Of a stretch of 64,000 nucleotides of DNA, positions 2,552-53,172 are shown piece after piece. A program made the position numbers and the translations under genes. This stretch comes from an uncultured Bacilli bacterium (lineage in GTDB: Bacteria > Bacillota_I > Bacilli_A > RF39 > UBA660), in assembly GCA_947629205.1 (NCBI GenBank), contig CANRCV010000001.1, positions 19,531-83,530 on the forward strand, written 5' to 3'. How positions within the stretch are numbered: the first letter of the stretch is position 1; the number at the start of each line of letters is the position of its first letter. The notes beneath the pieces were generated by a model. The model did no database searches. It saw nothing but the letters and a program-made list of their open reading frames with translations, and had not been told where the DNA came from.

Positions 2552-3442
2552 CTAATCACCTGTAATTTCTATTCCTAAAATTTCCAGTATTCTTTCTAAA
2601 TCCTTTTCTCTTTCAAAAGGAATTTCTATTTTATTCTCTTTAATTTTTACTTTAGAACCTATTTTTTCACGCATTACTTTTTCATAAATAGCATAGTGAA
2701 TATTTTTTTCACTTTCTTTTCTTTCAATTTTATTCGTTTTAGCAATATCTTTTTCTTGTAACATTCTTTCTAATTCACGAACACTTAAATTTTCTTGTAA
2801 TACTTTATCTGCTAAATCTTCTATTAAAGATACATCACTTAATTTACTTAAAGCACGAGCATGTCCCATACTTAATTTTCCTGTTTTTACAAGTTCTTTT
2901 GTTGTATTTGGTAATTTTAATAAACCTAGCATATTGGTAACATAACTTCTACTTTTACCAAAACGATGAGCAAATTCTTCTTGTGTCATATGGTTCAGTT
3001 CAATAATATTTTGATAAGCAATTGCTTCATCTATTGGATTTAAATCTTCTCTTTGAATATTTTCAATTAAAGCGATTTCCATCATTTCTTGATCATTAAA
3101 CTCTTTAATAATAGCAGGAATAGTTTCAAGTCCAGCCATCAACGCTGCTTTTGTTCTTCGCTCTCCAGCAATTAATTCATATCCTTTAATTGCTTTTTTA
3201 ACAATAATTGGTTGAACAATTCCATATTCTTTAATACTACTTGCTAATTCTTTAATACTTTCTTCATTAAATGTTTTTCTTGGTTGATAAGGATTGCTTC
3301 TTATTTCCTTTAAAGGAATTTCCACAATATCATTTAATTTGGCAGAATCAACAATCTTTTTTTCAAAATGATTAAAATCAATAATTTCATTGGAAAATAA
3401 TTGCTCTAAACCCTTTCCTAATGCTTTTCTTTTAGTTTCCAT
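2552..3442 (-). CDS. parB: ParB/Spo0J chromosome partitioning protein
   Basis: ParB N-terminal box (...PYQPRK...IVQPIIV...ELIAGERR) followed by an HTH. It overlaps parA by 11 nt. Confidence 0.9.
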   Translation of the reverse strand: METKRKALGKGLEQLFSNEIIDFNHFEKKIVDSAKLNDIVEIPLKEIRSNPYQPRKTFNEESIKELASSIKEYGIVQPIIVKKAIKGYELIAGERRTKAALMAGLETIPAIIKEFNDQEMMEIALIENIQREDLNPIDEAIAYQNIIELNHMTQEEFAHRFGKSRSYVTNMLGLLKLPNTTKELVKTGKLSMGHARALSKLSDVSLIEDLADKVLQENLSVRELERMLQEKDIAKTNKIERKESEKNIHYAIYEKVMREKIGSKVKIKENKIEIPFEREKDLERILEILGIEITGD

Positions 3443-4217
3443 CGCGACTAATCACTTCCTTTGCTAAATTGGCATATGCAAGAGTTGCACGACTTGTGGG
3501 ATCATATACATTTACGGGTTTTCCATGACTAGGAGCTTCCACTAATCGTACAAGTCTTGGAATAATGGTATTAAAAACCTTATTTTTAAAATACTTGCGA
3601 ACCTCTTCCATTACTTGAAGTCCAATATTCGTTCTTCCATCTAACATCGTCAGTAAAACACCTTCAATTCTTAAATCAGGATTCATTTGTGATTGAACTA
3701 AAATAATGGAATTTAAAAGTTGATTAATTCCTTCTAATGCATAATATTCACATTGTACAGGAATAATCACTGAATCACTAGCAACTAAAGCATTCATTGT
3801 AGAAAGACCTAAAGAAGGTTGGCAATCAATTAATATATAATCATAACTATCTTTAATATCTTGAAGACGCATATTTAGTTGATTGTTTTGTTGAAATGTT
3901 TGATCTTCAAACATTTTTTTAATAAATTCAACCTCTACTCCCGCTAAATTTAAAGTAGCAGGAATAACAGATAAATTTTTAAACTTTGTTTTAATGATGG
4001 CATCTTTTATAGAACAAGCTCCAGTAATTACATCATAAATATCATTTTTAAAATCACTCGTATTTAAACCAAGTCCATTAGAAGCATTACCTTGTGAATC
4101 CAAATCAATAAGAAGCGTCTTTTTATTTTCATTTCCTAAAGCAGCAGCCAAGTTAATACTTGTCGTTGTTTTTCCAACACCACCTTTTTGATTTACGATT
4201 GAAATAACTTTTGCCAT
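3432..4217 (-). CDS. parA: ParA/Soj ATPase
   Basis: Deviant Walker A motif KGGVGKTT near the N-terminus. Length and position upstream of parB fit. Confidence 0.9.
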   Translation of the reverse strand: MAKVISIVNQKGGVGKTTTSINLAAALGNENKKTLLIDLDSQGNASNGLGLNTSDFKNDIYDVITGACSIKDAIIKTKFKNLSVIPATLNLAGVEVEFIKKMFEDQTFQQNNQLNMRLQDIKDSYDYILIDCQPSLGLSTMNALVASDSVIIPVQCEYYALEGINQLLNSIILVQSQMNPDLRIEGVLLTMLDGRTNIGLQVMEEVRKYFKNKVFNTIIPRLVRLVEAPSHGKPVNVYDPTSRATLAYANLAKEVISRDGN

Positions 4218-4941: not shown

Positions 4942-6882
4942 TTAATTATTTATTGGTGTAAGAACGATACGGAAACTACGCTTTGATAGTCCACTATCAC
5001 CTTCATTAGAAAAAGCAAATATATTAGCTTGGATACCACTATTACTTTCGCCACCTCTCATAAACCATGGTAATTCGTTACCAATAAAACGAGCCCAACT
5101 TTCATTCCATGAATTAATTAGGTTATTACTTGTACTATATTTTTTCAACCCAAATGGTCCTAATTCTCCTGTGGCATCTCCTAATATTCTTTTATTATAA
5201 GTTGTGTAAACTGAACTATACTCATAAGCATCATAATATTTTTCATTCTCCTCCACTAAATCACTACTCCATATATTGCCATTCATATATCCCGTCACTA
5301 ATTCAAATGCACCCCCTGACATATCATATATTCCGCTATAATTTCCAGTTGTACTTGCAACGTTGCTTTTTTTGTTTTTGTAATTATAGCTTTTACCATT
5401 ATCTTGATTTGGTGTTACTATGTCATAACCATTATATTCAGTATATCCACTTGTTGGCATTTCTATTGCAGCATATCCTGTTACAAAATTTTGACTATTA
5501 TTTATCATTATTTCTGTACATATACCATCTGTACATATTCCATACTTAGAATGCGATAGATAAGCTACTGCTCCCCACTCTGTATTTTTCATCATATGGC
5601 TATCTAATTCTCTTTGATAAGCATAACTAACATCAAACATATTTTTTACTGTTATGCCTCTCCAACTATAAACATTTGGCTTTATAATAACTTTTGATGA
5701 ATTACTTTCATCTTTTTGAGCTTCTGTTGTACTGTTAGCATCTTTATATCCAGTTTCAAACTTTCCTACCCACATTCCTTTTGAACCTTCAAATGCTGTG
5801 AAGGCTGGATGTGTCATCCATTTATCCACTGCACATGAACCATCCTCTCCACTTGCATTTGGTGTTTCACAACTTGTTTCTGTATTTTCTGTATCATCTA
5901 AATCAAATTTAATTTCTATTGTTTGAGCTGCATTCTCATTTAATGGTCCATTTGCATCTGTATATTCTCCCATATTAAAGATTTTATATTTATATTTTGG
6001 TATCCATACAAAATAACTTTCGATGTTATCTTCTGGTATTGTATCTCCTTCTTTGTATTCTTTTGTATTGTCTACTAATATAACAGCATTTGCCCATTCC
6101 TTTTCTTCATAGTTATACCATTCTTCTTTTGTATTGGCTTTGGTTACTTTTCCTGTATCATCTATGATGACTGGTATTAGTTTATCATTGGTAGTTGGTT
6201 CTTCTGCTATTTCATTTGCAGTTAACATAGCTACTGGTTTACTACTTGTTTCTAATACTGGATCTGCTCCATGTAAGATTGGTTCTGTATATTCTGCTAC
6301 GGTATTCATTTTTCCATCTACTACTATTTTACTTATAAAATTTTTATTCATAGCATCATCATTGACGGTGACATCTTCATCCATCCATAGTTTTAATTTA
6401 AATTCTCTACTTTCTTGTCCTTTTAATGTTCCATTCATTAAATCTTTTGCTTCTATTGATGTATAATCATCTCCACTATAGGTGGTTACATCACTTGGAT
6501 ACTCACTTAATATTTGTTTTTGGCCACCATTTAGTTCTACTGCTACATACTTACTATCTAATATATTTTTTTCATTTTCACTACTTTCTTTTAATTTTTC
6601 TAGTTTTAATGAAAAATTAAGAGTTGTATTACATTTATTTTTTATTGTAAAACTATATGGTGTTAATTTTTGTGCTTCTTCATCTGTTATTGGGTATGCT
6701 TTTTCTAAATGAATAGCATCACTTTCATTTTCAAGAATCAAACTTAAACAATCACTTTGAATTTGATTCATACCTTGTTGTTCTGCAGTAGATGTCCACC
6801 ATGCAAAACTGGAACCTATCATTACAATTATTGTAAAGAGCATTCCTATTACTAAATATTTTTTCTTTTTACTTTTTTCCAT
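4942..6882 (-). CDS. exported two-domain protein, paralog 1: SipW/TasA-like N-terminal region plus C-terminal FGE-sulfatase (SUMF1)-like domain
   Basis: N-terminal signal/TM followed by ...SSFAWWTSTAEQ. C-terminal motifs EWGAVAYLSHSKYG, GIYDMSGGAFELVTGY, FMRGGES and SFRIVLTP parallel the FGE motifs SWxDAVAYCNW, GLYDMSGNVWEW, RGGSW and GFRC. RBS GGAGA upstream of the ATG at 6882. Confidence 0.6.
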   Translation of the reverse strand: MEKSKKKKYLVIGMLFTIIVMIGSSFAWWTSTAEQQGMNQIQSDCLSLILENESDAIHLEKAYPITDEEAQKLTPYSFTIKNKCNTTLNFSLKLEKLKESSENEKNILDSKYVAVELNGGQKQILSEYPSDVTTYSGDDYTSIEAKDLMNGTLKGQESREFKLKLWMDEDVTVNDDAMNKNFISKIVVDGKMNTVAEYTEPILHGADPVLETSSKPVAMLTANEIAEEPTTNDKLIPVIIDDTGKVTKANTKEEWYNYEEKEWANAVILVDNTKEYKEGDTIPEDNIESYFVWIPKYKYKIFNMGEYTDANGPLNENAAQTIEIKFDLDDTENTETSCETPNASGEDGSCAVDKWMTHPAFTAFEGSKGMWVGKFETGYKDANSTTEAQKDESNSSKVIIKPNVYSWRGITVKNMFDVSYAYQRELDSHMMKNTEWGAVAYLSHSKYGICTDGICTEIMINNSQNFVTGYAAIEMPTSGYTEYNGYDIVTPNQDNGKSYNYKNKKSNVASTTGNYSGIYDMSGGAFELVTGYMNGNIWSSDLVEENEKYYDAYEYSSVYTTYNKRILGDATGELGPFGLKKYSTSNNLINSWNESWARFIGNELPWFMRGGESNSGIQANIFAFSNEGDSGLSKRSFRIVLTPINN

Positions 6883-7293: not shown

Positions 7294-9174
7294 TTATGGT
7301 GCAAGAACAATACGGAAGCCCATATTACTCTCTTCTCCACCACCTTCACCACAAAAAGCAAAGATTCCCGCTTCTACACCATTATGTTTGATTGAACCAC
7401 GATCCAGCCATGGTCCATTTTTAAACATAAACCAAGCATTATCAAAATGCCAAGAAGAAACATTTCTATCAGCATTACCATTGTAATGCACAAATGGTCC
7501 TAGTTCACCCGTTGCATCTCCTAGTATTCTATTTTTAAATACCAAATTATTTGTAGCATAATTATATACATCGTAATATTTTGAATTTTCTTCTTGATTA
7601 TTAAACGGAAAAGTACTAGTACTAAATCCACTTGAACCAAAGGTAAATCCAGTATTATTTGTTCCTTTTATTACTCCCATTGTATATTCCTTTGATCCAC
7701 CACTCATATCATATATTCCACTATAATTTCCTGTTGTACTTGCAACTTGACTTTTTGAATTTTTGTAATTTATCGTTTTTGTTCCATCAGCACCTAATCC
7801 ACTTGGGGTTTCATAGTCCCTATAGGCACTTAATCCAGTCATAGGTTCTTCTGTTGCCGCATAACCTGTAACAAATGCACTATTATTATTGATTCTTACT
7901 TCTACACATTTATCCCCATCACATGTTCCATACTTTGAATGGGATAAATAAGCTACTGCTCCCCATTCAGTATTCTTCATCATATGACTATCTAAGTCTA
8001 TTTGATAGTTATAACTTGTATCAAACATATTTTTTACTGTTATGTTTCTCCAACTATATACATTGGGTTTGATAATAACTTTTTCTGCTGCCAATTCATT
8101 GTGTTGCATAGCTTCTGTTGCACTTGTTACTCCATCATATCCAGTTTCAAATTTACCTACCCAAAATCCGTTTGTACCAAATGCAGTAAATGCTGATGGT
8201 GTCATCCACTTATCTACTGCACATGAGCCATTCTCTCCACTTGCTGGTGTTGTACATTCTATTGTGTTATCTACTGTATCATAGATTCCAAATTCTATTT
8301 CTATTTCTTGTGACTTTTCTTGATACTCATCTTGAGAAAGTCCATTATATTCTCCCATATTAAAGATTTTGTATTTATATTTTGGTATCCATACAAAATA
8401 ACTTTCTATATTTTCTTCTTTTATAGTTCCATCTTCTTCTATAGTACCATTATCTTTTAAGATAACCGCATTTGCCCATTCTTTTTTAGAATAATCATAC
8501 CATTTTTCTTCTATATTTGCTTTAGTTACTGTTCCATCTGTTTCATTTATTTTTACTGGTATTAAATTATCTTTTAGTACTGGATCTGCTCCATTTAATG
8601 TATCCTCTGTATATACTTTTGCTAGTGTATTTAATGTAGCATTCACTACGACTTTACTTTCAAATGTTTTATTCATGGACTCTTCATCTTCTACTGTTAC
8701 ATGTTCATCCATCCATAGTTTTAAACTATATTGTTTTGATTCTTTTCCATTTAGTATTCCTGTTGCTAGTTCATATCCTTTTTTATATTTTTCTAATGTT
8801 GTTTCTTTTAAACTATTTAATATTCTTTTGGTATTACTATTTAATTGTACTGCTATATATTCTTCTTTTAATGTACTACTATCACTTATACCTAAGTTTA
8901 CTGTATAGTTAATACTTGTATCACATGTATTTTCTACTTTAAAAGTAAATGGTGTTAAATCTTGTGCTTCTTCATCTGTTATTGGGTAGGCTTTTTCTAA
9001 ATGAATAGCATCTTTTTCTTCATTCAGTGATACTTTTAAACATGTACTTGTAATTTGATTAATTCCACTTTGTTCTGCAGTGGATGTCCACCATGCAAAA
9101 CTGGAACCTATAATAAGTGTTAATAAAAGTAATCCCCCAACAACACTGTAAATTACTCTTTCTTTTTTCTTCAT
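7294..9174 (-). CDS. exported TasA-like/FGE-like two-domain protein, paralog 2 (626 aa from ATG 9174)
   Basis: Start trimmed to MKKKERVIYSVVGGLLLL... (signal peptide). It has the same AWWTSTAEQSGINQI motif and the same C-terminal FGE-like motifs (GIYDMSGG, EWGAVAYLSHSKYG, FRIVLAP). Confidence 0.6.
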   Translation of the reverse strand: MKKKERVIYSVVGGLLLLTLIIGSSFAWWTSTAEQSGINQITSTCLKVSLNEEKDAIHLEKAYPITDEEAQDLTPFTFKVENTCDTSINYTVNLGISDSSTLKEEYIAVQLNSNTKRILNSLKETTLEKYKKGYELATGILNGKESKQYSLKLWMDEHVTVEDEESMNKTFESKVVVNATLNTLAKVYTEDTLNGADPVLKDNLIPVKINETDGTVTKANIEEKWYDYSKKEWANAVILKDNGTIEEDGTIKEENIESYFVWIPKYKYKIFNMGEYNGLSQDEYQEKSQEIEIEFGIYDTVDNTIECTTPASGENGSCAVDKWMTPSAFTAFGTNGFWVGKFETGYDGVTSATEAMQHNELAAEKVIIKPNVYSWRNITVKNMFDTSYNYQIDLDSHMMKNTEWGAVAYLSHSKYGTCDGDKCVEVRINNNSAFVTGYAATEEPMTGLSAYRDYETPSGLGADGTKTINYKNSKSQVASTTGNYSGIYDMSGGSKEYTMGVIKGTNNTGFTFGSSGFSTSTFPFNNQEENSKYYDVYNYATNNLVFKNRILGDATGELGPFVHYNGNADRNVSSWHFDNAWFMFKNGPWLDRGSIKHNGVEAGIFAFCGEGGGEESNMGFRIVLAP

Positions 9175-9303
9175 AAAATTCTCACTTTCTTTGCATGTAA
9201 TATGCGTAATACGTATATTACTTTTTAAATTTATTATATACGTAAAACGTATATAAGTCAATGCGTGAGACGTATATAATGTAAAATAAATTCAGTGATT
9301 AAT

Positions 9304-20985: not shown

Positions 20986-21690
20986 CTACCTTCTAAATAT
21001 ATTCTTATAACTAGTATAATCTTGAATGAACAATGGAAAAAGAACTTTTAAATCATTATGAGCGTTCTTTACACATTTAATTAAAACTATATTAGCATTA
21101 TTATTCCCTTTTGTGTATATAAATTGCACTTTTTTAGCAACAATTTGATACTTTTCACATAAAGCAAGTATTTCTTCTAAACGTTCTGGAAGATGAACCA
21201 TATAAAAAGTTCCATTTTCTTTTAAAGCATATTTTACAATTTCAAAAATTGATTTTAAATCCAAAGCAATTTCATGACGTGCTACTGCCTTTTGTTTATT
21301 CTCATTAACTAATGAACTTTTTTGATACTTAAAATAAGGAGGATTTGCAACTATTACATCAAAATTATTTCCCGGGAAATAATTTTTTATCTCCTTTATA
21401 TCGTTGGGAAATAATTTTATTTGTTTTTCTTTATGGTTTAATGTAATGCTTTCTTGTGCCAGTTTTGCAATTGGTTTTTGAATTTCAAAAGCAACTATAT
21501 CATTTGAATAATAATAGGAAAGAATTAAAGGGACGACTGCATTTCCTGTACACAAATCTAGTACTTTATCTTCCTTTTTTAATTCAACAAATTCAGCCAG
21601 TAAAATAGAATCCAAAGAAAATTTAAAAGCTTCACTATCTTGAACAATTTTTAAAGGAACATAATCATATAAATCATTGATAACTTTCAT
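20986..21690 (-). CDS. SAM-dependent methyltransferase, YabB/TrmN6-like (tRNA adenine-N6 methyltransferase family)
   Basis: Motifs ...VLDLCTGNAVVPL... and ...VIVANPPYF... Position matches Bacillus yabB. Confidence 0.6.
   Translation of the reverse strand: MKVINDLYDYVPLKIVQDSEAFKFSLDSILLAEFVELKKEDKVLDLCTGNAVVPLILSYYYSNDIVAFEIQKPIAKLAQESITLNHKEKQIKLFPNDIKEIKNYFPGNNFDVIVANPPYFKYQKSSLVNENKQKAVARHEIALDLKSIFEIVKYALKENGTFYMVHLPERLEEILALCEKYQIVAKKVQFIYTKGNNNANIVLIKCVKNAHNDLKVLFPLFIQDYTSYKNIFRR
21361..21386. promoter_or_regulatory. candidate Noc-binding site: 26-bp perfect palindrome AAAATTATTTCCCGGGAAATAATTTT containing the 14-bp NBS consensus ATTTCCCGGGAAAT
   Basis: Read directly from the sequence at 21367-21380. 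It lies inside the methyltransferase coding sequence. Confidence 0.55.
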
Positions 21691-24458: not shown

Positions 24459-26108
24459 CTATTGTATTTCTATTTTATTCTTTTCAAAAATAGTAAAGAC
24501 ATCTTCTATTGTTTCATTAGACCCTTCTTTTTCAATTTGTTTAGAATAAATAGGTTCTTCCATAATTTGATAAACATATTTTTCTTTTAATTTTTTAATA
24601 TATTCTTTTTTTAATTTTTCCCACTCTTCTGTAGTACATGCAATAAACTTTATAGGATGTTGTATACTATTTTCATATTCTTGTTCTATCTCTTCTAAAT
24701 TTTGATTAAACATCTCCACTATGCTTTCTTGCGTATTTGTAACTATATTAATCTCATTAGAAGCAAGAACAACTATGGAATCCATAATCATTGGTTTCAA
24801 TTGGTGAGTACCGTTAATTTTTTCATTAAATTGATCCCATGATTTTTTATTTTGAATTAATTGCGTCTTGTCCGCTTTGGCAAAACAATTATTTATTCGT
24901 ACCTTTTTTAATTTATCTATATATTGTTTATAATCTTGATTTTCTTGTCTATCTAATTTGTCAGGTTGTTCTATTTCTTCTTGCGGTATTGATTCTTCTA
25001 TTATAGGTTCTTTTATAATCTCTTCAGTTGATTTTGATACCTCAATATTTTCTTGAATAGGTATTTTATTTATTGCATCAGTATTTTCACTAGTACCTTT
25101 AATTAAGATTAAAAAAATAAGTAAAAAAGGATCAACATTAATATTTATTTTATTAATTACGTCATTTAATTCAAAAATAGTATCTTTTATTTTTAAATAT
25201 TTTGCTTCTTGATTATTGTTTTTAGTTTCAATAGCTTTTAAAAACAATACATCAATTAATTTTTTTAAAAATACTTTATAATCAATACTTGTTTTTTCAA
25301 TTTTATCAAATATATCTTTTATTTCTTTAAATTGATTATTTAAATACGCATCTACTATGTTTTTTATTTGAATCATCGAAATTGATCCATAATTATTTAA
25401 AACGGTATCTAAATCTATTTTTTTATTACTTGTGTATAATTGATTTAAAATACTTAAAGCATCACGACAACCACCCTCTGCTAAATAAGCTATCTCTTCT
25501 ATGGCATCATCACTAATATCTATTTTTTCAAGTTCTGCTATTTTTTTTAAGTGTGTTATTAATTCTTCATTACTTAACTTTTTAAAATCATAGCGTTGGC
25601 AACGAGAAAGTATTGTAATGGGCACCTTTTCAATATTAGTTGTTGCTAAAATAAATACAATATGACTAGGTGGTTCTTCTAATGTTAAAAGTAAAGCATT
25701 AAATGCAGAATTTGATAATTCATGTACCTCATCTATAATATATATTTTATATTTACTATAAGACGGGGCAATTTTTACATTATTTATTAATTCTCTTATA
25801 CTATCTATGCCATTGTTAGATGCTGCATCAATTTCTATAATATCAGCATTATTATTACTGTTAATACAGCTATTACACTTTCCACATGGAATACCATCTT
25901 TTGGATTTTCACAATTAATTGTTTTAGCAAAGATTTTTGCTGTACTTGTTTTTCCAGTTCCTCTTGGCCCTGTGAAAATATAAGCATGAGAAATTTTATC
26001 GTTTTTTACTGCATTTTTAAGCATTTCGATAGAATATTTTTGACCAACGATTTCATCAAAAGTTGTTGGTCGATATTTTCTATATAAGACTTTATAATCG
26101 TTTGGCAT
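24459..26108 (-). CDS. dnaX: DNA polymerase III gamma/tau subunit
   Basis: YRKYRP..F.E..GQ, Walker A GPRGTGKTS, Zn module CxxC, SRC motif. Confidence 0.9.
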   Translation of the reverse strand: MPNDYKVLYRKYRPTTFDEIVGQKYSIEMLKNAVKNDKISHAYIFTGPRGTGKTSTAKIFAKTINCENPKDGIPCGKCNSCINSNNNADIIEIDAASNNGIDSIRELINNVKIAPSYSKYKIYIIDEVHELSNSAFNALLLTLEEPPSHIVFILATTNIEKVPITILSRCQRYDFKKLSNEELITHLKKIAELEKIDISDDAIEEIAYLAEGGCRDALSILNQLYTSNKKIDLDTVLNNYGSISMIQIKNIVDAYLNNQFKEIKDIFDKIEKTSIDYKVFLKKLIDVLFLKAIETKNNNQEAKYLKIKDTIFELNDVINKININVDPFLLIFLILIKGTSENTDAINKIPIQENIEVSKSTEEIIKEPIIEESIPQEEIEQPDKLDRQENQDYKQYIDKLKKVRINNCFAKADKTQLIQNKKSWDQFNEKINGTHQLKPMIMDSIVVLASNEINIVTNTQESIVEMFNQNLEEIEQEYENSIQHPIKFIACTTEEWEKLKKEYIKKLKEKYVYQIMEEPIYSKQIEKEGSNETIEDVFTIFEKNKIEIQ

Positions 26109-26570: not shown

Positions 26571-26585
26571 ACTTCCACCTTAAAT

Positions 26586-26672
26586 TTAAAAAAGTGCACA
26601 CGAATAGAGATTGATGTGGCTGCTATTTTCCAATCCTGACCAGATTACAATATATTCGTTGCACAAATAGAT
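26586..26672 (-). ncRNA. ffs: small (4.5S-type) SRP RNA
   Basis: The minus strand reads ...GUGCAACGAAUAUAUUGUAAUCUGGUCAGGAUUGGAAAAUAGCAGCCACAUCAAUCUCUAUUCGUGUGCAC followed by UUUUUU. It has the conserved domain IV elements GGUCAGG...GGAA...AGCAGCC and a closing helix GUGCA/UGCAC plus CGAAUA/UAUUCG. The location next to tadA/dnaX matches Bacillus scr. Confidence 0.65.
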
Positions 26673-26700
26673 AATAACAAAAATAATTTTAAAATACAAT

Positions 26701-26716
26701 AGTTTCACGTGAAACA
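26701..26716. promoter_or_regulatory. parS site AGTTTCACGTGAAACA (15/16 match to the consensus TGTTNCACGTGAAACA)
   Basis: Read from the sequence. Palindromic and intergenic, between gyrA and the SRP RNA. Confidence 0.75.
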
Positions 26717-26739
26717 TTACATTTTTATACAAAGAAAAA

Positions 26740-26755
26740 TGTTCCACGTGGAACA
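26740..26755. promoter_or_regulatory. parS site TGTTCCACGTGGAACA (15/16 match; perfectly symmetric variant)
   Basis: Read from the sequence. It overlaps the gyrA stop region and may double as the gyrA terminator hairpin (a U-rich tract follows on the minus strand). Confidence 0.75.
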
Positions 26756-29299
26756 TTAATTTTCTTCTGGAGTATTTTCTATTTCTTCGACAGGTTCTTC
26801 CGTTTCTATTTTAGCATCATTATTATCAACACTAAGTGTAGAAACTGCTAGTTCTTCATTGCTTTCTTCATTTGTTTCTGCAATTTCTGGTGTTTTTTCC
26901 ACTAAACTAATATTAGAAACTTCTTGTCCATCTTTTAAGTTAATAACTCTTACTCCTTGTGTTACGCGACCTAAAGTATTAATTTGTTCAAGAGGTACAC
27001 GAATAACCATACCAGTATTAGTAATAATAATTAAATCACTATTTTCTTCAACTAATCTAAAGGCAGCCATTGGACCATTCTTTTCTGTAATATTTAAAGC
27101 CTTAACACCTTTGCTTCCTCTTCTTGTTTGACGATAATCACGAACTATAGATTGTTTTCCATAACCTTTCTTTGTAACAATAATTAAACTATCGTCTTCA
27201 TTTGCAATTTCTGCACCAATACATTCTCCACCATCTAGGTTAATTCCTCGAACACCACTAGCTGTTCTACCCATAATACGGATTTCATTTTCATCAAATT
27301 TAACCATACGACCATTATTAGAGCCAAGTAAAATCATATCACTACCCGTTGTTTTCTTAACAGAAATTAATTCATCCGTAGGTTTTAAACTAATTGAAAT
27401 TTTACCATTGGTACGAATGTTTTCAAATTCACTAATATTCGTTCTTTTTACAATACCGTGTTTAGTAGCAAATAATAAATATTTAGCAACATCATCACGT
27501 TTAATACTTAAAATAGAGTTAATCTTTTCTTCTTTTTCTATTTGCAATAAGTTAATAATTGGTAATCCCTTTGATTGTCTACCAAATTCAGGTATTTCAT
27601 AGCCTTTTAATCGATAAACTTTACCTTTATTTGTGAAGAATAGAACATAATCGTGTGTGCATAAGTTTACTAAATGTTCAACAAAATCTTCTTCATTCGT
27701 ATTCATACCTTTAATCCCTACTCCACCACGATTTTGTAATTTAAATGTAGCAGACGTTGTTCTTTTGATATAACCATTGTGTGTAAGTGCTATAATGATA
27801 TCTTCTTCAGGAATTAAAGATTCATCTTCAATATATTCAATAGCAGACATATCAATATTTGTTCTTCGCTCATCAGCATATTTATTCTTAATTTCAAGTA
27901 ATTCTTCTCTAATAATTGCAAGAATCTTTTCTTCACTTGCTAAAATACTGTGGTATTCTTCAATCGCTTTTAATAATTCTGCAAGTTCTGCTTCAATTTT
28001 TTCTCTTTCTAAGCCAGTTAAACGACGTAATCTCATATCCAAAATAGCTTGAGCTTGTATTTCATCCAAATTAAATTTAGACATTAATTGTTCTTTAGCA
28101 ATTACATCCGTTTCACTTTCACGAATCGTTTTAATAACAGCATCTAAATTATCTAAAGCAATTTTTAAACCTTCTAAAATATGGACTCTTTCTTCTGCTT
28201 TTGCTAAATCAAATTGAGTTCTTCGAATAATAATTTCTTTTTGGTAATCAATATATTTAGAAATAATATCCTTAAGTCCTAATACCTTTGGTGCTCCTTG
28301 ATCAATCATTAATAAATTTATACCATAACTTGTTTGTAATTGTGTATATTTGTATAAATTATTTAAAATGACATTCGCATTAGCATCTCTTTTTAAATAA
28401 ATAACAACACGAACTGGATTTTCTAAGTTAGATTCTTCGTGTAATTCACTAATTCCATCAATGATTTTATCACGAACAAGTTCTCCAATACGAGTTTGGA
28501 ATTCTGCTTTATTAACTTGATAAGGAAGTTCTGTAACCACAATTCTTGTTTTACCATTTATCTCTTCAATATCGGCTTTACCACGAATAGTAATAGTTCC
28601 TCTACCCGTTTCATAAGCCTTTTTTATACCACTATTACCTAAAATAGAAGCACCAGTTGGAAAATCGGGTCCTTTAACATATTGCATTAATCCATCGGTA
28701 TCAATATCCGGATTATCGATATATGCAACACAACCATCAATTACTTCTCCTAAATTATGTGGTGGAATATTGGTTGCCATACCAACTGCAATCCCCATTG
28801 TTCCATTTACTAAGATATTTGGAAAACGACTTGGTAATATTTTAGGTTCAGATTCTGTTTCATCAAAGTTTGGTACAAAATCAACTGTATTTTTATTTAA
28901 ATCCCTTACCATTTCAAGAGATAACTTAGATAAACGGGCTTCGGTGTAACGCATTGCTGCTGCACCATCACCATCCATATTACCAAAGTTTCCGTGGCCA
29001 TCAACTAAAACATGACGAAAACTAAATGGTTGAGCCATTCTTACCATTGCTTCATAAATAGAAGAATCTCCGTGTGGATGATATTTACCCATAACATCCC
29101 CGACAATTCTTGCACTTTTACGGTGTGGTTTGTCAGGAGTATATCCAGATTCATACATAGAATATAAAATACGACGATGTACAGGTTTTAAACCATCTCT
29201 TAAATCTGGTAATGCACGAGCAACAATAACACTCATGGCATAACGACCAAAGGAATCTTTAACTTCTTCAACTATGTTATTTTCAATTATTTTATCCAT
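26756..29299 (-). CDS. gyrA: DNA gyrase subunit A
   Basis: ...[27 protein letters not shown]... Active-site Tyr region and C-terminal beta-pinwheel repeats. Acidic tail. Confidence 0.95.
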
Positions 29300-32438: not shown

Positions 32439-32897
32439 TTAAGAAATCTTCTCCCCTATTTTTCTTTCTCTTAAAATTGTTTCTAAACGAGCAGATTTTA
32501 ATATTTGATTGTTAATAACCTCATAGGAAGAATCAAGTCCTATTTTAAAACCATTTTTAAATTCTATATATAAAAGTCCATTATGATAATACATGGATTT
32601 AATTTTATTATAACGAAGCCATGAACAATTTTTTAATCTTGGACTTTTTGTAGGAAAAAAGATTAAATTACTACTCTCTTCTACTATAATTGGTGCTTTA
32701 TAAGAAGAACCTATCAACTTTCCTGTTCCTTTTTGTCTTCCTTCTAAAGAACTACCAAAATAAATACAACTTTCTTCCATGATTTCATTTGTTGGTTGAT
32801 TTACTAAAAATACTTTATCTTCTTCATATACCCTCGTTTTATCATTAATAGCATAAAGTGCTACCGTTTTTTCATTTACCTCATATTTTTTTTCCAT
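32439..32897 (-). CDS. ComK-family transcription factor-like protein (152 aa)
   Basis: Collinear matches to B. subtilis ComK: YEVNEKTVAL matches YEVNGATIAV; SCIYFGSSLEGRQKGT matches SCRFFGSSYAGRKAGT; KAPIIVEESSNLIFFPTKSPRLKNCSW matches KPPIMVDPSNQIFLFPTLSSTRPQCGW; NNQILKSARLETI matches ENQVYRTAWLRTK. Confidence 0.7.
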   Translation of the reverse strand: MEKKYEVNEKTVALYAINDKTRVYEEDKVFLVNQPTNEIMEESCIYFGSSLEGRQKGTGKLIGSSYKAPIIVEESSNLIFFPTKSPRLKNCSWLRYNKIKSMYYHNGLLYIEFKNGFKIGLDSSYEVINNQILKSARLETILRERKIGEKIS

Positions 32898-35699: not shown

Positions 35700-35932
35700 T
35701 TAATTTTTTGTTTTCCACAACTTATCCACACAATTTATGTATTATAATAACTGACTTTTTTTGATTTATCAACATTATCCACAAATTTTTTTTCATTTTT
35801 TATTCACATTGTGCATAAACTTATTTTAAAAAAAAGTGAATTAGGTGGACAAATATTTTTTTATAAATTCTTGACTTTTTTAATATCCTAATATTATAAT
35901 AAAATGACTTTAAATTTAAAGGAGGAGACATT
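35700..35932. promoter_or_regulatory. oriC upstream DnaA-box cluster (dnaA-rpmH intergenic), including the rpmH promoter
   Basis: Boxes TTTTCCACA 35710-35718, TTATCCACA 35721-35729, TTATCAACA 35765-35773, TTATCCACA 35774-35782, TTATTCACA 35799-35807 and TGTGCATAA 35809-35817. TTGACT 35870-35875 with TATTATAAT around 35892-35900 looks like a sigma-A promoter for rpmH. Confidence 0.7.
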
Positions 35933-39586: not shown

Positions 39587-40792
39587 ATGATTATTCGTGA
39601 AAGATATTTAAAATTAATAAGACCATTTTATAATCAAGAATTAATTAAAGTATTAATTGGACTTAGACGTTCTGGTAAGTCTGTAATTTTAACGCAAATT
39701 ATTGATGAACTCAAAAAAGATAATATAGATGATCAACATATTATTTATATTAATTTTGAAGATTATGATTATGATGAATTAACGAATGCCAAAAGTTTAA
39801 ATAAATATATAAAAGAAAAAATGATAGATCAAAAGAAATATTATTTATTTTTTGATGAAATTCAAAATGTTGAATCTTGGGAAAAAGTTATAAATTCTTT
39901 TAGAGCAACTAAAAATGTATCCATATTTATAACAGGATCAAATAGTGATTTATTATCAAGTGATTTAGCAACGCATATTGCAGGAAGATATGTAAGTTTT
40001 AAAATAACTCCATTTACTTTTAGTGAAGTTTGCGAACTTTTAGAAATAAAAGATAAAGAGAAAATAGAAGAAGCCTTTAAAGATTATATAAAATGGGGTG
40101 GAATGCCTCAAAGATTTATGCAAACAGATGATTTATCTAAAAAAACTTATTTAAATGATATATATGATTCTATTATTATAAAAGATATAGTGAAAAGATT
40201 TAATATTAAAGATATAGATTTATTAAATAAAATTGTAACCTATGTTTTAACAACACCTGCTCAAACTTTTTCTCCTGAAAGTTTAAAAAAATATTTTGAA
40301 AGTGTTTCAAGAGGTGTATCTCTTGAAACGATTTATAACTATTTAGATTATATAACAAGAGCCAATTTAATATTTAAAGCCGAAAGATATGATATTAGAG
40401 GAAAAAGAATTTTAACAGGTAAATATAAGTATTATTTAACGGATTTAGGTTTTACTAATATACTAAGTGAAGGAAAAAAAGAAAAACTTGGTGCTTATTT
40501 AGAAAATATTGTTTATAATGAATTAATTGCAAGAGGCTATAATGTAAACATAGGAAATTTAGATAATGGAGAAATTGATTTCATCGCAACAAAATTTGAT
40601 GAAAAAATTTATGTTCAAGTAGCTTATTTACTTGCAGATGAATCGGTTATTCAAAGAGAGTTTGATGCTTATAAAAAAATAGAAGATAATTTTCCTAAAT
40701 ATGTATTATCTATGGATCATTTCGATTTTTCCAAAGATGGAATTATTCATAAAAACATTATAGATTGGTTATTAGAAGAAGAAAAAAACTAG
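39587..40792 (+). CDS. AAA+ ATPase with C-terminal DUF4143 (COG1373 family, PD-(D/E)xK-like C-terminal module), paralog 1
   Basis: Walker A GLRRSGKS. Conserved ...FITGSNS... The C-terminal ...GEIDFIA...YVQVAY... is typical of DUF4143. RBS AAGAGGAA. The gene sits between mnmE and mnmG. Confidence 0.75.
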   Translation: MIIRERYLKLIRPFYNQELIKVLIGLRRSGKSVILTQIIDELKKDNIDDQHIIYINFEDYDYDELTNAKSLNKYIKEKMIDQKKYYLFFDEIQNVESWEKVINSFRATKNVSIFITGSNSDLLSSDLATHIAGRYVSFKITPFTFSEVCELLEIKDKEKIEEAFKDYIKWGGMPQRFMQTDDLSKKTYLNDIYDSIIIKDIVKRFNIKDIDLLNKIVTYVLTTPAQTFSPESLKKYFESVSRGVSLETIYNYLDYITRANLIFKAERYDIRGKRILTGKYKYYLTDLGFTNILSEGKKEKLGAYLENIVYNELIARGYNVNIGNLDNGEIDFIATKFDEKIYVQVAYLLADESVIQREFDAYKKIEDNFPKYVLSMDHFDFSKDGIIHKNIIDWLLEEEKN

Positions 40793-40805: not shown

Positions 40806-42671
40806 ATGAAATATGAAGTTATAGTAGTTGGAGGAGGACACGCAGGTTGTGAAGCTGCTCATATGGCTGCTTTTTTAGGTAAAAAGACATTACTGATCAC
40901 AATGAATAAAAAAAATATTGCTGATATGCCTTGTAATCCATCTATTGGAGGAACTGCTAAAGGAGTTATTGTTCGTGATATAGATGCTCTAGGTGGCCTT
41001 ATGGGTAAAGTTGCAGATGAATCCCATTTTCAAATGAAAATGTTAAATAGTAAAAAAGGACCTGCGGTGCAATCTCTTCGTTGCCAAGCTGATAAAACAA
41101 CTTATCCTAAAAATATGTTAAAACGATTAGAAAATACTGAAAATTTAACCATTCAAGAAGATTTAGTAGAAGACTTAATTGTTGAAAACAATAAAATAAA
41201 AGGAATAGTGCTAGCAAATAATGAAAAAATAGAATGCGATGCCTTAATATTAACAACAGGAACGTATTTAAAAAGTAATATTTTAAGAGGTGCTGTTTCA
41301 ACAGAAGGTGGTCCACACGGAGAAGGAAGAAGCAATCATTTAAGTGATAATTTAAAACGTTTAGGTTTTACGATTCAACGTTTAAAAACCGGAACTCCTC
41401 CTAGAATTAAAGCAGATTCTATTGACTTTTCAAAATGTAGTATTGAAAAAGGGGATAATAAATATTACACCTTTTCTCACGATGATAAACCAAAATACAA
41501 AATAGAAGACCAACAAAACTGTTATTTAATTTATACGAATCAAGAAACACATCAAATTATTTTAGACAATCTAGATAAATCCAGTATGTATGGAGGGTAT
41601 GTAACAGGAGTTGGACCAAGATATTGTCCATCCATTGAAGATAAAATTGTACGTTTTAAAGATAAAGAAAGACATCAATTATTTTTAGAACCGGAAAGTA
41701 TGTATTATGATGAATGGTATATTCAAGGTTTTTCTACAAGTATGCCCGAAGATGTTCAAGAAAAAATGGTACATAGTTTAAAAGGACTCGAAAATGCGAT
41801 AATTACCAAATATGCTTATGCCATAGAATATGATGCGATAGACCCTTTACAACTAAAACCATCCTTAGAAACAAAAGTAATTGAAAACTTATTTACAGCA
41901 GGGCAAATTAACGGAACAAGTGGTTATGAAGAAGCAGCAGGACAAGGTCTAATCGCCGGAATAAACGCCGCAAGAAAATTAGAGAATAAGAGTCCATTTA
42001 TTTTAAAAAGAAATGAATCCTATATAGGTGTTTTAATTGATGATTTAGTAACGAAAGGAACAAAAGAACCTTATCGAATGCTTACATCTCGTGCTGAATA
42101 TCGTTTACTTCTTCGCCACGATAACGCAGATTTACGTTTAAGAGGTTATGCTCACGAACTAGGAACTATCACCGATGAAATGTATCAAAACTACTTAAAT
42201 CGCGTACAAAAAATAGAAGAATTAAATGACTTTTTAGATACCACAAAACTAGAACTAACCGAAGATGTAAAAGCAAAATTTCAAGAACAAAACTTTAATT
42301 TACCTTTAAATAAAATGAGTTTAAAAGAACTATTAAAAAGACCAGAAATTACATTTGAATTTTTAGATACACTTTTAAATATCCCATTTGAAGAAGATAT
42401 CAAAGAAGTCGTAAGTATTGCGATTAAATATGATGGGTACATTAAAAAAACCGAAAAAGAAATAGAAAAAATGTTAAAGTTAGAAGAAAAACAAATTCCA
42501 AAAGATATTGATTATAGCAAAGTAAATAACTTAGCAAGTGAAGCTCGTGTGAAATTAGAAAAAATAAGACCAATTTCCATTGGCCAAGCTGCAAGAATTA
42601 GTGGTGTTAATCCTGCCGATATTTCAATACTTGCTATTTACTTAAAGAAAGAGTATGGTAAAAATGACTAA
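40806..42671 (+). CDS. mnmG: tRNA uridine 5-carboxymethylaminomethyl modification enzyme MnmG (GidA)
   Basis: FAD-binding motif VIVVGGGHAGCEAA. 621 aa. Confidence 0.95.
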   Translation: MKYEVIVVGGGHAGCEAAHMAAFLGKKTLLITMNKKNIADMPCNPSIGGTAKGVIVRDIDALGGLMGKVADESHFQMKMLNSKKGPAVQSLRCQADKTTYPKNMLKRLENTENLTIQEDLVEDLIVENNKIKGIVLANNEKIECDALILTTGTYLKSNILRGAVSTEGGPHGEGRSNHLSDNLKRLGFTIQRLKTGTPPRIKADSIDFSKCSIEKGDNKYYTFSHDDKPKYKIEDQQNCYLIYTNQETHQIILDNLDKSSMYGGYVTGVGPRYCPSIEDKIVRFKDKERHQLFLEPESMYYDEWYIQGFSTSMPEDVQEKMVHSLKGLENAIITKYAYAIEYDAIDPLQLKPSLETKVIENLFTAGQINGTSGYEEAAGQGLIAGINAARKLENKSPFILKRNESYIGVLIDDLVTKGTKEPYRMLTSRAEYRLLLRHDNADLRLRGYAHELGTITDEMYQNYLNRVQKIEELNDFLDTTKLELTEDVKAKFQEQNFNLPLNKMSLKELLKRPEITFEFLDTLLNIPFEEDIKEVVSIAIKYDGYIKKTEKEIEKMLKLEEKQIPKDIDYSKVNNLASEARVKLEKIRPISIGQAARISGVNPADISILAIYLKKEYGKND

Positions 42672-43377
42672 AGAAGAGTTTTATGAAGCCTTAAAGAATC
42701 TAAATATAGAATTAACAAATGATGAAAAAGAACAACTGGAAATTTATAAGGATTTCTTAAAAGAATACAATACCCATACCAATCTAACGGCCATTAAAGA
42801 AGATAATGGAATATATTTAAAACATTTTTATGATTCTTTAACAATCAATTCTTACATCAAAGAAGGTTTAAAAGTATTAGATATTGGAACCGGAGCAGGT
42901 TTTCCAGGTATGGTTCTTGCCATAGTAAATCCTAATACTTCTTTTACTTTATTAGATTCTAATAACAAAAAAACAACTTTTTTAAATCAATTAAAAGAAA
43001 AACTTGATTTAAAAAATGTTGAGGTTGTAAATGCACGAGCAGAGGAATATGTAAGAGAAAATAGGGAATTGTTTGATCTTGTGACCTCTCGTGCTGTAGC
43101 AAAACTTTCCATTTTAGCAGAACTATCCCTACCAGCTTTAAAAATAGAAGGCTTATTTATTCCTTTAAAAGCAAATATTGATCATGAAATAGAAGAATTA
43201 AATATTGCTTTATCTGTTTTAAATGGAAAGATAGAAAAAAAAGAAGAATTTAGTTTACCTATTGAAAATAGTAAGCGAACAATTCTACAAATAAAACATT
43301 TTGCTAAAACGGAAACTATTTTTCCAAGAAGTTATGATAAAATTTTGAAAAAGCCATTGAAAAATTATAATAAATAA
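42655..43377 (+). CDS. rsmG: 16S rRNA (guanine527-N7)-methyltransferase RsmG (GidB)
   Basis: SAM-binding motif DIGTGAGFPG. Position after mnmG. Confidence 0.9.
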   Translation: MVKMTKEEFYEALKNLNIELTNDEKEQLEIYKDFLKEYNTHTNLTAIKEDNGIYLKHFYDSLTINSYIKEGLKVLDIGTGAGFPGMVLAIVNPNTSFTLLDSNNKKTTFLNQLKEKLDLKNVEVVNARAEEYVRENRELFDLVTSRAVAKLSILAELSLPALKIEGLFIPLKANIDHEIEELNIALSVLNGKIEKKEEFSLPIENSKRTILQIKHFAKTETIFPRSYDKILKKPLKNYNK

Positions 43378-43412: not shown

Positions 43413-45071
43413 ATGAATATCGACAAAAATATTCTAGAAATACCAATTGAGGACATTATTCCCAATCGTTTTCAACCAAGACTTTCATTTAACGAAGAAG
43501 GAATTACAGAACTAGCAGAGTCTATAAAACAACATGGGATTATTCAACCCCTTGTCGTAAGAAAACTTGGAGATAAGTATGAAATTATAGCTGGAGAAAG
43601 AAGATATAAAGCCGCTACAATGGCTGGTTTAACAAAAGTTCCAGTTATTATTTCTAATATAGATGATAATAAAAGTGCAGAGGTGGCTCTAGTGGAAAAT
43701 ATACAAAGAAGAAATTTAACAGCAATTGAAGAAGCAAAATCATATAAAAATCTGTTAGATAGAGGATATTTAACACAAGAACAACTTGCAAATAAAATGG
43801 GTGTATCTCAAAGTTCTATTGCCAATAAGCTACGTTTATTAAACTTAGATGAAGAGGTACAAGAAGCTTTATTAAATGAAAAAATAAGTGAAAGACATGC
43901 GAGAGCATTACTTGCACTTGAAGATAAAGAAGAACAAAAGAAATGGTTAAAAAGAATTATTGATGAAAGATTAACAGTAAGACAATTAGATTTAGAACTT
44001 AAAAAATTACAAGAAAATGGAGATTCTGCTGATAGTGATGAAATTAAATTAGTCAATATTAATCCTAATTTAGATGAAATCGTATCCAATGCAGAAGATA
44101 TTGTTGTACAAAGAGCACCACATGATGTTGCGAGTATGTTAATTCCAGAGGTACAAGAAGAACCAAAAGAAGAAATAAAAGAAGAACAAGAAACAAAACC
44201 TTCTAATAAATTCTTTAATTTTTTAGAAAATGAAGAAGCAAACATGAGTGTCATTGAACCAGATGAAATTTTAGATACATTTACAACTACTTCTGTAATG
44301 GAAAATCCTATAGAATCTACTGTAGAAGAACAACCAAAAGAACCAGTTTTAAATAATGATTCTCCTACTATAAATGAAGAGGTAACACCAATAGAAAATC
44401 CGTTTACAGATACACCAATGATAAATACCCCACAAGAAGAAAATAAAGTAGATTCAGTTGAATTATTAGATGAATTAGATGATGAAGAAGATTTACAACC
44501 AATGAAACCAGAATTAAATTCATTTATTACAGAAGATATTGTAAATGAAATTGCTAATGAACCAGATGAAGAAGCAAATGATTCTGCTATGGCAAATATC
44601 TTTGAAACTCCATCTACTGAACCAATTAATAATGAAAATACAATTGTAGAAGAAACACCAAGTATAGATTCTGTTCCTGTAATAGAACCTACACCTATAG
44701 AAGAACCAGTAAATACTCAACAAGAAGAAACTAAAACAAATGAAGAAGAACCATTTAAATCTATTTTCTTTAATCATGAAGAAGAAAAACCAGAAGAAGT
44801 AGTTTCTCCTATTGAAGATAATAAAATAGAAGAAATAGAACCAACAGTAGAAGAAAATATTGTTGATCCATTAGATAGTATTGTAACTTTAGAACCTAAT
44901 TATCAACAAAAACAAGAAGAATTAGCAGGAAGAGATTTAAAAACAGCTATTAATACTGTTCGTAATACCATTAAAGAGTTAGAAAATAAAGGCTTTCTAA
45001 TTGAAACCGAAGAGGCTGATTTAGAAGATGTTTATCATATAACCATAAAAATTGATAAAGATAATAAATAA
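43413..45071 (+). CDS. noc: ParB-family protein in the Noc position (after rsmG), carrying an unusually long (~300 aa) acidic/Pro-rich low-complexity insertion before a conserved C-terminal segment
   Basis: ParB N-terminal box (...RFQPR...IIQPLVV...IIAGERR) plus an HTH. Residues about 250-510 are E/P/T/N-rich. 552 aa against ~280 aa for typical Noc. Confidence 0.7.
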   Translation: MNIDKNILEIPIEDIIPNRFQPRLSFNEEGITELAESIKQHGIIQPLVVRKLGDKYEIIAGERRYKAATMAGLTKVPVIISNIDDNKSAEVALVENIQRRNLTAIEEAKSYKNLLDRGYLTQEQLANKMGVSQSSIANKLRLLNLDEEVQEALLNEKISERHARALLALEDKEEQKKWLKRIIDERLTVRQLDLELKKLQENGDSADSDEIKLVNINPNLDEIVSNAEDIVVQRAPHDVASMLIPEVQEEPKEEIKEEQETKPSNKFFNFLENEEANMSVIEPDEILDTFTTTSVMENPIESTVEEQPKEPVLNNDSPTINEEVTPIENPFTDTPMINTPQEENKVDSVELLDELDDEEDLQPMKPELNSFITEDIVNEIANEPDEEANDSAMANIFETPSTEPINNENTIVEETPSIDSVPVIEPTPIEEPVNTQQEETKTNEEEPFKSIFFNHEEEKPEEVVSPIEDNKIEEIEPTVEENIVDPLDSIVTLEPNYQQKQEELAGRDLKTAINTVRNTIKELENKGFLIETEEADLEDVYHITIKIDKDNK

Positions 45072-47284: not shown

Positions 47285-47328
47285 AAATGTCAATTTTGTA
47301 TTCTGTGGAATACAAAATTGACATTTTC
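47285..47328 (+). terminator. 20-bp perfect-stem hairpin AAAATGTCAATTTTGTATTC-TGTG-GAATACAAAATTGACATTTT followed by a T-rich tract
   Basis: Read from the sequence. The stem is unusually long for a terminator. Confidence 0.55.
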
Positions 47329-47368
47329 TTTTCATTGTGCTACCATTTTAAATAGTGAGGGGATACAA

Positions 47369-52734: not shown

Positions 52735-53172
52735 ATGAAATTAAAAGATATACCTGTAGAAGAATTAGAAAATATGTCATATGATGATATCGCCTTTTTA
52801 ATCCTTACAGAGAAAAAGAAAAAAATGAAAATTATTGATTTATTTGAAGAGGTAGGAAAATTAATTCATCTACCCCAAGCAATGATTGAAGAAAAAATTG
52901 GAGATTTTTTTGAAATGTTAACAACTGACAAAAGATTTATTATGCTTGATAATGGAACATGGGATTTAAAAGAAAGACATGCTCAAGATATTGTTATCGA
53001 TGAAGAAGATGAAGATATTAGTACAGAAGATATGGAAGATTTAGAAGAAATGGATGAAGAAGAGGAAGATGATGATGAAATCTTCTATGATGAAGATGAC
53101 GATGATGATCATGATGATGATTTAAAAGATTTAGTTGTCATTAGTGAAGAAGATGAAGAAGATTCTATGTAG
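52735..53172 (+). CDS. rpoE: RNA polymerase delta subunit
   Basis: N-terminal HARE-HTH (...YDDIAFLIL...) followed by a long poly-Asp/Glu tail, the hallmark of RpoE-delta. Confidence 0.8.
   Translation: MKLKDIPVEELENMSYDDIAFLILTEKKKKMKIIDLFEEVGKLIHLPQAMIEEKIGDFFEMLTTDKRFIMLDNGTWDLKERHAQDIVIDEEDEDISTEDMEDLEEMDEEEEDDDEIFYDEDDDDDHDDDLKDLVVISEEDEEDSM

Follow-up and report, generated by a model that had tools for sequence, protein, structure and literature searches.

Noc is a model for how Firmicutes keep the division ring from cutting the chromosome, and its accepted mechanism requires an N-terminal helix that is released by cytidine triphosphate (CTP). The locus described here raises two linked questions: whether a 26-bp palindrome inside a methyltransferase gene is a true Noc-binding site (NBS), and how a Noc-type protein that lacks this helix might act. 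The stretch analyzed, referred to here as the window, comprises 64,000 nucleotides of contig CANRCV010000001.1 from an uncultured Bacilli bacterium. Related metagenome-assembled genomes (MAGs) are labeled 'uncultured Tenericutes/Bacilli bacterium', and the source is an uncultured low-GC gut bacterium. In our assessment, the window very probably holds a real NBS together with a cognate Noc ortholog. The fuller reading, in which a genuine NBS loads a Noc-type, CTP-dependent clamp encoded at 43413-45071 and a motif in a disordered linker is the proposed effector, is likely.

The palindrome, the site that it contains and the gene in which both are embedded have the following positions in the window.

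21366-21381, no strand: NBS core of 16 bp, TATTTCCCGGGAAATA, exact match
21361-21386, no strand: extended perfect palindrome of 26 bp around the NBS, with flanks that fit a lineage-specific consensus AAT-NBS-ATT
20986-21690, minus strand: TrmN6/YabB-like S-adenosylmethionine methyltransferase of 234 aa, host gene of the NBS, with Pfam MTS and N6-methylase matches

Positions 21361-21386 read AAAATTATTTCCCGGGAAATAATTTT, a palindrome without a mismatch, inside which the 14-mer ATTTCCCGGGAAAT occupies 21367-21380. This direct reading confirms the original prediction, made from the window alone, that a sequence identical to the 14-bp Noc site lies within a 26-bp palindrome in the coding sequence of a yabB-like methyltransferase. 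Homologs of this methyltransferase carry the Joint Genome Institute (JGI) name TrmN6. In its reading frame the region is AAA AAT TAT TTC CCG GGA AAT AAT TTT, that is, K N Y F P G N N F, and the residues Y-F-P-G-N encoded by the NBS form the loop immediately upstream of the methyltransferase NPPY motif. Base composition predicts about 1e-5 occurrences of the exact 16-mer in 64 kb. A shuffle test with two or three mismatches is uninformative for an exact 16-mer (at two mismatches, 24 of 100 shuffles contain at least one match), and shuffle statistics were replaced by composition expectations and control palindromes.

Because the window holds just one NBS, the corresponding loci of relatives were examined. 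A metagenome scan with an alignment of the methyltransferase provided 80 orthologous loci (818,604 bp in total, 24-31% GC). These contain 77 copies of the exact NBS 16-mer, against 1.5e-4 expected from composition, an enrichment of more than 10^5-fold, while 200 control palindromes of the same composition have no occurrence in the same DNA. All 86 CCCGGG hexamers stand in NBS context; 78 of them, including the one in the window, are the exact 16-mer, and in the remaining eight the deviations are confined to the outer flank positions. The same 16-mer is also found in unrelated coding and intergenic contexts in these loci, with approximately two thirds of the sites in coding sequence and one third in non-coding DNA, which makes up only ~8% of the total.

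The site in the methyltransferase gene is itself conserved. Of more than 2,000 methyltransferase homologs, the top 120 have a near-invariant YFPGNNF, and 16 of the 20 metagenome loci that encode YFPGN at the orthologous position spell it TAT TTC CCG GGA AAT, the sole differences in the other four being CCA or TTT. The exact site is likewise present in 6/6 loci fetched for the methyltransferases of two closer relatives, and in the genomes of both the long Noc is encoded on the same contig as the methyltransferase. With the window included, the long Noc and an NBS-bearing methyltransferase share a contig in three genomes (the window; P0042 with P0168; P0075 with P0197). The site is kept across methyltransferase orthologs of 42-76% protein identity. 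A logo of the flanks of 72 unique NBS contexts shows A at -3 (0.76), A at -2 (0.85) and T at -1 (0.71), with A also enriched at -5 (0.6) and -4 (0.54). This lineage-specific AAT-NBS-ATT extension explains the growth of the window site to a 26-bp palindrome. Further NBS lie inside other genes at recurring offsets from the methyltransferase site, approximately -3.0 to -3.6 kb (L012 2963, L018 7305, L039 1854) and +4.1 to +5.0 kb (L013 9737, L015 14463, L036 14443). This suggests that several coding-embedded NBS are orthologously conserved in those lineages, from which the window, lacking them, differs. On these comparisons of sequence, the palindrome is an NBS maintained by selection on the DNA and not a product of chance.

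The candidate reader of this site is a ParB paralog encoded next to rsmG, whose folded regions are as follows.

43413-45071, plus strand: Noc-type ParB paralog of 552 aa, directly downstream of rsmG, with Pfam ParB_N and HTH_ParB matches
43413-44027, plus strand: N-terminal CTP-binding domain and helix-turn-helix (HTH) DNA-binding domain, residues 1-205, with an AlphaFold2 (AF2) predicted local distance difference test (pLDDT) score of ~80-92
44883-45068, plus strand: Noc-type C-terminal (dimerization) domain, which aligns to the end of TIGR04285 with the linker removed

The gene order is mnmG, rsmG (42655-43377), noc, and this rsmG-noc synteny beside oriC is conserved in relatives. The protein, which starts MNIDKNILEIPIEDI, scores 301.4 bits against TIGR04285 (NCBIfam Noc) and falls below the cutoff of 315 because the insertion splits the match; after in silico excision of residues 213-496 the alignment runs from end to end and the score is 317.9 bits. 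The top PDB matches are Noc of Geobacillus and B. subtilis (7NG0/7NFU/7OL9), with 215, 214 and 186 bits for Noc compared with 173 and 168 bits for Spo0J. AF2 is also confident for a helix and two strands of the C-terminal domain (residues 497-547).

Specificity in this family has been attributed to positions 173, 179, 184 and 201, which are QKKR in Noc and RTAG in ParB; the switch to NBS recognition is brought about by Q173 and R201, and of positions 179 and 184 only one needs to be a lysine (PMC7383237, Jalal 2020). Residue alignment with Noc structures identifies the corresponding residues of the 552-aa protein as Q133, K139, N144 and R161. This QKNR combination is shared by 115 of 120 close homologs, and Q-K-(N/S/T)-R prevails in the wider clade. 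The hallmarks of ParB/Spo0J are missing, with Q and R in place of R173 and G201 and no LG(K/R)GL peptide. The predicted CTP and clamp residues Q45, G61, R63, R64 and N96 show no variation in alignment A1 and map, in the alignment with 7OL9, to B. subtilis Q68, G86, R88, R89 and N121, for which CTP-binding and clamp-closing roles have been described (PMC4331003, PMC8429893). The original prediction had taken the ParB paralog after rsmG for a possible divergent Noc or ParB-like factor and had left open whether its HTH residues would side with Noc or with Spo0J. The structure matches, TIGR04285 and QKNR bear out the reading as a divergent Noc, and the Q/K/R pattern of Noc, not the RTAG of Spo0J, answers the question of the HTH residues. 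In public annotation, these homologs appear only as 'ParB/RepB/Spo0J family partition protein'.

It should be noted that several observations weigh against this pairing of site and protein. Position 184 (N144) is N instead of K, and neither QKNR nor QKAR appears as such in the text of PMC7383237 or in two of its supplementary files. The 64-kb window contains no second NBS-like site, the next best match having three mismatches. A scan of ~200 kb of noc-side loci turned up no NBS; seven loci from a genome-collection scan with the window Noc protein have neither NBS nor parS, and five further noc loci that were scanned have no NBS. The methyltransferase loci of the P0211 lineage also yielded none. 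All NBS that were found lie on the gyrA-to-methyltransferase side of the origin, but because the sampled DNA was origin-proximal only, this distribution is not conclusive, and the apparent clustering of NBS at the origin may be a sampling effect.

The clearest departure from known Noc proteins is at the N-terminus. In B. subtilis Noc, a helix formed by aa 1-10 binds the membrane, is extremely conserved in all Noc homologues examined and is needed for function, and the substitutions K2E, F5E, R7E and F9E abolish peripheral localization (PMC4331003, Adams et al.); the helix of Noc is held in an autoinhibited state, from which CTP probably releases it (PMC8429893, Jalal et al. 2021). The 552-aa protein has no such amphipathic membrane-targeting helix, and only 16 residues precede its PNRFQPR. 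The frame is closed by a stop (43371-43373) 14 codons ahead of the open reading frame (ORF), and an AAAGGGG ribosome-binding site also precedes the start, which leaves no room for a longer N-terminus. The canonical helix extension is likewise absent in all 120 closest homologs (398-639 aa); a few of the homolog gene calls start further upstream, with extra residues that are unlike the canonical helix. When 1.84 billion cluster representatives were searched exhaustively, almost all of the best 150 matches were 340-740 aa long, and 147 of them had 14-23 residues before the PNRFQPR-type motif. The earlier impression that this N-terminus does not resemble the amphipathic helix of Noc has thus held up, with the start fixed by the upstream stop and the pattern extending across the clade. 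Literature searches returned no description of Noc homologs without the N-terminal helix or with long linkers, and the helix-less, long-linker Noc predicted here represents a known cell-division safeguard in a form not described before.

Between its folded domains, the protein has a long linker in which the following elements were recognized.

44028-44882, plus strand: acidic disordered linker of 285 aa, residues 206-490, AF2 pLDDT mostly <50
44043-44147, plus strand: conserved element of ~35 aa right after the DNA-binding domain, residues 211-245, IKLVNINPNLDEIVSNAEDIVVQRAPHDVASMLIP, from conserved columns in A1
44205-44246, plus strand: invariant linker motif NKFFNFLENEEANM, residues 265-278, a candidate effector or membrane-targeting motif, from A1
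44751-44774, plus strand: second hydrophobic linker motif PFKSIFFN, residues 447-454, PFKxIFF in A1

The linker consists of 21% E, 10% P, 10% N and 7% T, with a net charge of -68, and varies in length among relatives. It had at first been described as an E/P/T/N-rich, low-complexity disordered segment whose conservation was worth checking; its acidity and its disorder in the AF2 model agree with that description, but it is not featureless, since invariant short motifs stand out in A1 despite the variable length. In the motif at residues 265-278, for which the consensus is NKFFNFLE(D/N)E..NM, the residues K266, F267, F268, N269, F270, L271 and E272 are invariant in A1, and KFFNFLE is found in 118 of the 120 close homologs. 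The logo of the wider clade is (N/G)(K/R)FF(N/T)(F/P/L)(L/F)E(D/E)E, and the linkers of 82 of 141 long representatives contain [KR]FF, sometimes in two or three copies, compared with 3.1 expected from shuffled linkers. The NKFFNFLE core appears to mirror the canonical R7-F8-F9 (R-F-F, then L..E.EQ) of B. subtilis Noc, the N-terminus of which we take to be MKHSFSRFFGLGEKEQ; K2, F5, R7 and F9, the residues named by Adams et al., agree with it. The element at residues 211-245 follows the pattern IPLVNINPNLDxIVNNAEDINVxRxPHDVASMLIP with an AF2 confidence of 58-67. Variants of it (…AxDIN…SLLKP) are recognizable in distant clade members, and it is without a known counterpart in canonical Noc or ParB. 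A loose pattern of the second hydrophobic motif ([PST][FL]x1-3[FIMLY]FF or PFx0-4FF) occurs in 95 of the 120 close homologs, and other conserved islands include the acidic-hydrophobic E(V/I)LDDLD and, just before the C-terminal domain, VDPLDSIV.

A role of the 265-278 motif as effector, and above all as a membrane anchor, faces several difficulties. Its likeness to the canonical helix spans only ~10 residues, and strict [KR]FF is missing in 59 of the 141 long representatives. AF2 places a helix at residues 268-277 within the otherwise disordered linker with low confidence (pLDDT ~52-58); in the model of the full protein the terminal domains are confident and the linker is not, and docking of the KFFNFL helix on the N-terminal domain is not readable from it. 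In a hydrophobic-moment scan of the 552-aa protein, the top segments fell in the folded domains and the linker motif did not stand out. Acidic residues flank the motif, which lies in a segment of net charge -68, and repulsion from an anionic membrane is to be expected. The motif has a single basic residue, whereas B. subtilis Noc no longer binds the membrane when a charge is inverted by K2E or R7E (PMC4331003). The composition of the linker may partly reflect a genome-wide tendency of an AT-rich lineage and not a specific adaptation, because several other proteins in the window have acidic, E/N/P/T-rich tails or inserts: gyrA (26756-29299, with a tail of ~50 residues), dnaX (24459-26108) and the product of 52735-53172. 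We give the linker motif about an even chance of being the effector. Direct binding of the motif to the membrane is doubtful, and a clade-wide relocation, in which the [KR]FF core would have moved from the CTP-gated N-terminus into the acidic linker, sometimes in several copies, can be offered only tentatively.

Under the reading that we favor, a dimer of the 552-aa protein would recognize TATTTCCCGGGAAATA through its HTH, with Q133 and R161 accounting for the two NBS-specific bases and K139 as the permissive lysine. Once loaded at the NBS, the protein would bind CTP via its conserved GERR box, close as a clamp and spread onto nearby origin-proximal DNA; we infer loading, CTP clamp closure and spreading from the conserved residues and from selection on the site. 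Partitioning would fall to Soj and Spo0J, a separate pair that has parS sites of its own. The linker motif would take over the effector role of the missing helix and block division over the nucleoid by anchoring the DNA that flanks the NBS, either at the membrane itself or at a partner protein of the membrane or the divisome.

The components of the partitioning system and the origin are present in the window as follows.

2552-3442, minus strand: canonical Spo0J/ParB of 296 aa, the parS-binding paralog, from tblastn and the ORF listing
3432-4217, minus strand: Soj/ParA ATPase, with ParA-family NCBIfam matches
26588-26668, minus strand: small bacterial signal recognition particle (SRP) RNA gene, Rfam RF00169, 56.8 bits
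26701-26716, no strand: parS site AGTTTCACGTGAAACA, a sequence match with one mismatch to the consensus
26740-26755, no strand: parS site TGTTCCACGTGGAACA, a perfect palindrome variant that recurs in relatives
35711-35818, no strand: DnaA-box cluster (oriC) upstream of dnaA, with a GC-skew sign change between 32 and 40 kb

The soj-spo0J operon and the two parS sites, both of which lie between gyrA and the SRP RNA gene, had been overlooked in the original prediction. The window Spo0J has R...G at positions 173/201 (GKSRSY...SMGHAR) and an N-terminus, ALGKGLEQLF, of the ParA-interacting LG(K/R)GL type, and its PDB matches are 203 bits to B. subtilis Spo0J versus 158-160 bits to Noc. The window Soj is 57% identical to what we take to be the B. 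subtilis Soj sequence. Relative to oriC, the NBS lies ~14 kb to the left, noc ~8 kb to the right (22 kb from the NBS) and soj-spo0J ~32 kb to the left; noc and soj-spo0J are ~40 kb apart on opposite sides of the origin, and the rsmG-noc adjacency is intact. Both paralogous systems, each with its own predicted site, coexist in the window.

The orthologous gyrA-to-SRP-RNA/tadA intergenic region of relatives contains one to eight exact parS sites (in the window, 26571-26755 with two parS). In distant relatives this region measures 1-1.4 kb and carries arrays of three to eight exact parS at a spacing of ~35-150 bp, followed by one or two NBS ~150 bp apart (L055 3900-4900; also L020, L027, L044 and L059). 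Each of the five parS sites at 3905-4407 in L055 is trailed by a variant of TTGTGTTGATAA, two of which read on the other strand exactly as the DnaA-box-like TTATCAACA; the sixth site (4575) is looser.

The alternative that survives best keeps the NBS and the loading protein but changes what the protein does. According to this explanation, it would act as an organizer of the origin region or as a regulator of replication or segregation, not as a membrane tether, and the acidic linker would serve either as a brush, steric or electrostatic, or, through its short motifs, as a hub that binds soluble partners. It is the main rival because the acidic context of the linker motif, its single basic residue and its low AF2 confidence disfavor membrane binding. 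The absence of the canonical helix across the clade is consistent with it, as is a linker net charge that disfavors contact with an anionic membrane. In relatives, the NBS cluster on the left arm close to the origin, where they often form pairs immediately next to parS arrays, with none in the ~200 kb on the noc side, and S. aureus Noc has been reported to control replication initiation (PMC5540599). On the other hand, [KR]FF mirrors the membrane-binding residues of B. subtilis Noc, the clustering at the origin may stem from the origin-proximal sampling noted above, and cell wall and division genes are present, among them a PBP1A-like gene at 48617-50551, so that nucleoid occlusion would be useful. 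An organizer of this kind is possible, although not what we expect.

A second alternative holds that the palindrome is kept for the sake of the methyltransferase, through constraint on YFPGNNF or through an mRNA hairpin, and that its identity with the NBS is coincidental. The near-invariance of YFPGNNF in more than 100 homologs would be explained in this way, as would the presence of a perfect, hairpin-forming palindrome within the mRNA. The codons argue otherwise: TTC accounts for 9% of Phe and CCG for 4% of Pro in the window, and since both are rare, the probability of TAT TTC CCG GGA AAT given the peptide is ~1.5e-3 under window codon usage, a value that applies per lineage, yet the synonymous positions are fixed on these codons. 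Orthologs without the NBS tolerate many peptides in this variable loop (e.g., YILPE, YFDSN, YYKTG and FFKPN), which argues that YFPGN is kept by the DNA site and not by the enzyme, and the 77 recurrences of the 16-mer extend to many other genes and to intergenic DNA. Maintenance for the methyltransferase alone is therefore highly improbable. That the palindrome arose by chance in AT-rich DNA, or is a relic of a CCCGGG restriction site, is scarcely credible: a single site in the window and the uninformative two-mismatch shuffles are what could be said for it, whereas an exact 16-mer with an expectation of ~1e-5 per 64 kb is kept across orthologs as divergent as 42-76% identity, with conservation reaching into the flanks well beyond CCCGGG. 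Chance palindrome and restriction relic were both rejected on the basis of the 77-copy count and the conservation in orthologs, and protein-level constraint was rejected as well. Spread of the NBS copies as a mobile element carrying a fragment of the methyltransferase gene was ruled out by the flanks.

Several neighboring genes were also recorded. Three paralogous proteins of 626-655 aa are encoded at 4942-6882 (minus strand), 7294-9261 (minus strand) and 45388-47268 (plus strand), the last directly downstream of noc; common to all three are a hydrophobic segment at the N-terminus and the motif WWTSTAEQ(S/Q)G(I/M)NQI(Q/T)S. Two paralogous ATPase-like genes of ~400 aa, at 39587-40792 and 47318-48577 (plus strand), with an N-terminus IIRERYLKLIRPFY…GxRRxGKS, flank mnmG-rsmG-noc. 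This pair looks inserted into the origin cluster, because it is missing at the same position in relatives L094-L098. A 152-aa ORF is located at 32439-32897 (minus strand) between recF and dnaN. In relatives L094, L096, L097 and L098, the 152-aa gene beside dnaN carries Pfam ComK (PF06338), and a ComK-like regulator thus appears to be encoded inside the origin gene cluster.

Compared with the Noc proteins of B. subtilis and Geobacillus (7OL9, 7NFU, 7NG0 and 6Y93), the predicted system shares the identical 16-bp site, the CTP domain with its GERR box, the HTH Q/K/R residues, the Noc-type C-terminal domain, a gene position right after rsmG beside oriC, and the presence of a separate Spo0J/parS system. 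In contrast to B. subtilis Noc, the window protein is without helix alpha1, helix alpha2 and the spacer, with 16 versus ~39 residues before PNRFQPR; position 184 is N, not K, and the preferred site is extended to ~22 bp (AAT...ATT). Instead of the ~15-aa basic linker of canonical Noc, this clade has an acidic disordered linker of 150-390 aa with conserved [KR]FF-type motifs, and in the window the origin lies between noc and soj-spo0J, which are contiguous in B. subtilis. The protein belongs to the same superfamily as chromosomal Spo0J/ParB, of which 2552-3442 with parS at 26701-26755 is the example in the window, and shares its clamp architecture, but differs in having Q/R for R/G, in scoring higher against Noc and in lacking the LG(K/R)GL peptide. 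Membrane-targeting helices of MinD and FtsA and the C-terminal peptides of FtsZ and SSB are short motifs at the end of disordered linkers. The Noc linker motif is similar in being a short, conserved hydrophobic motif within a long disordered segment that is itself poorly conserved, varies in length and is joined to a folded assembly domain; it differs in being internal, in a strongly acidic context and in a DNA-sliding clamp.

These results indicate that the 16-bp NBS has kept the same sequence well beyond the Bacillales. They also show that a peptide of an unrelated enzyme, here YFPGN, can become fixed through selection acting on a DNA-binding site. In current annotation, pipelines label these Noc proteins just as generic ParB/Spo0J. 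A very large clade that lacks the helix but retains the NBS, the CTP box and the specificity residues amounts to a natural experiment that can reveal the indispensable parts of Noc, and the KFF motif of the linker points to a testable alternative effector. If the tentative relocation of the [KR]FF core is true, this clade, which comprises at least 150 clusters at 50% identity from low-GC gut Bacilli, would escape the N-terminal autoinhibition seen in Geobacillus Noc and would represent a mechanistically different coupling of a ParB-type clamp to the cell envelope.

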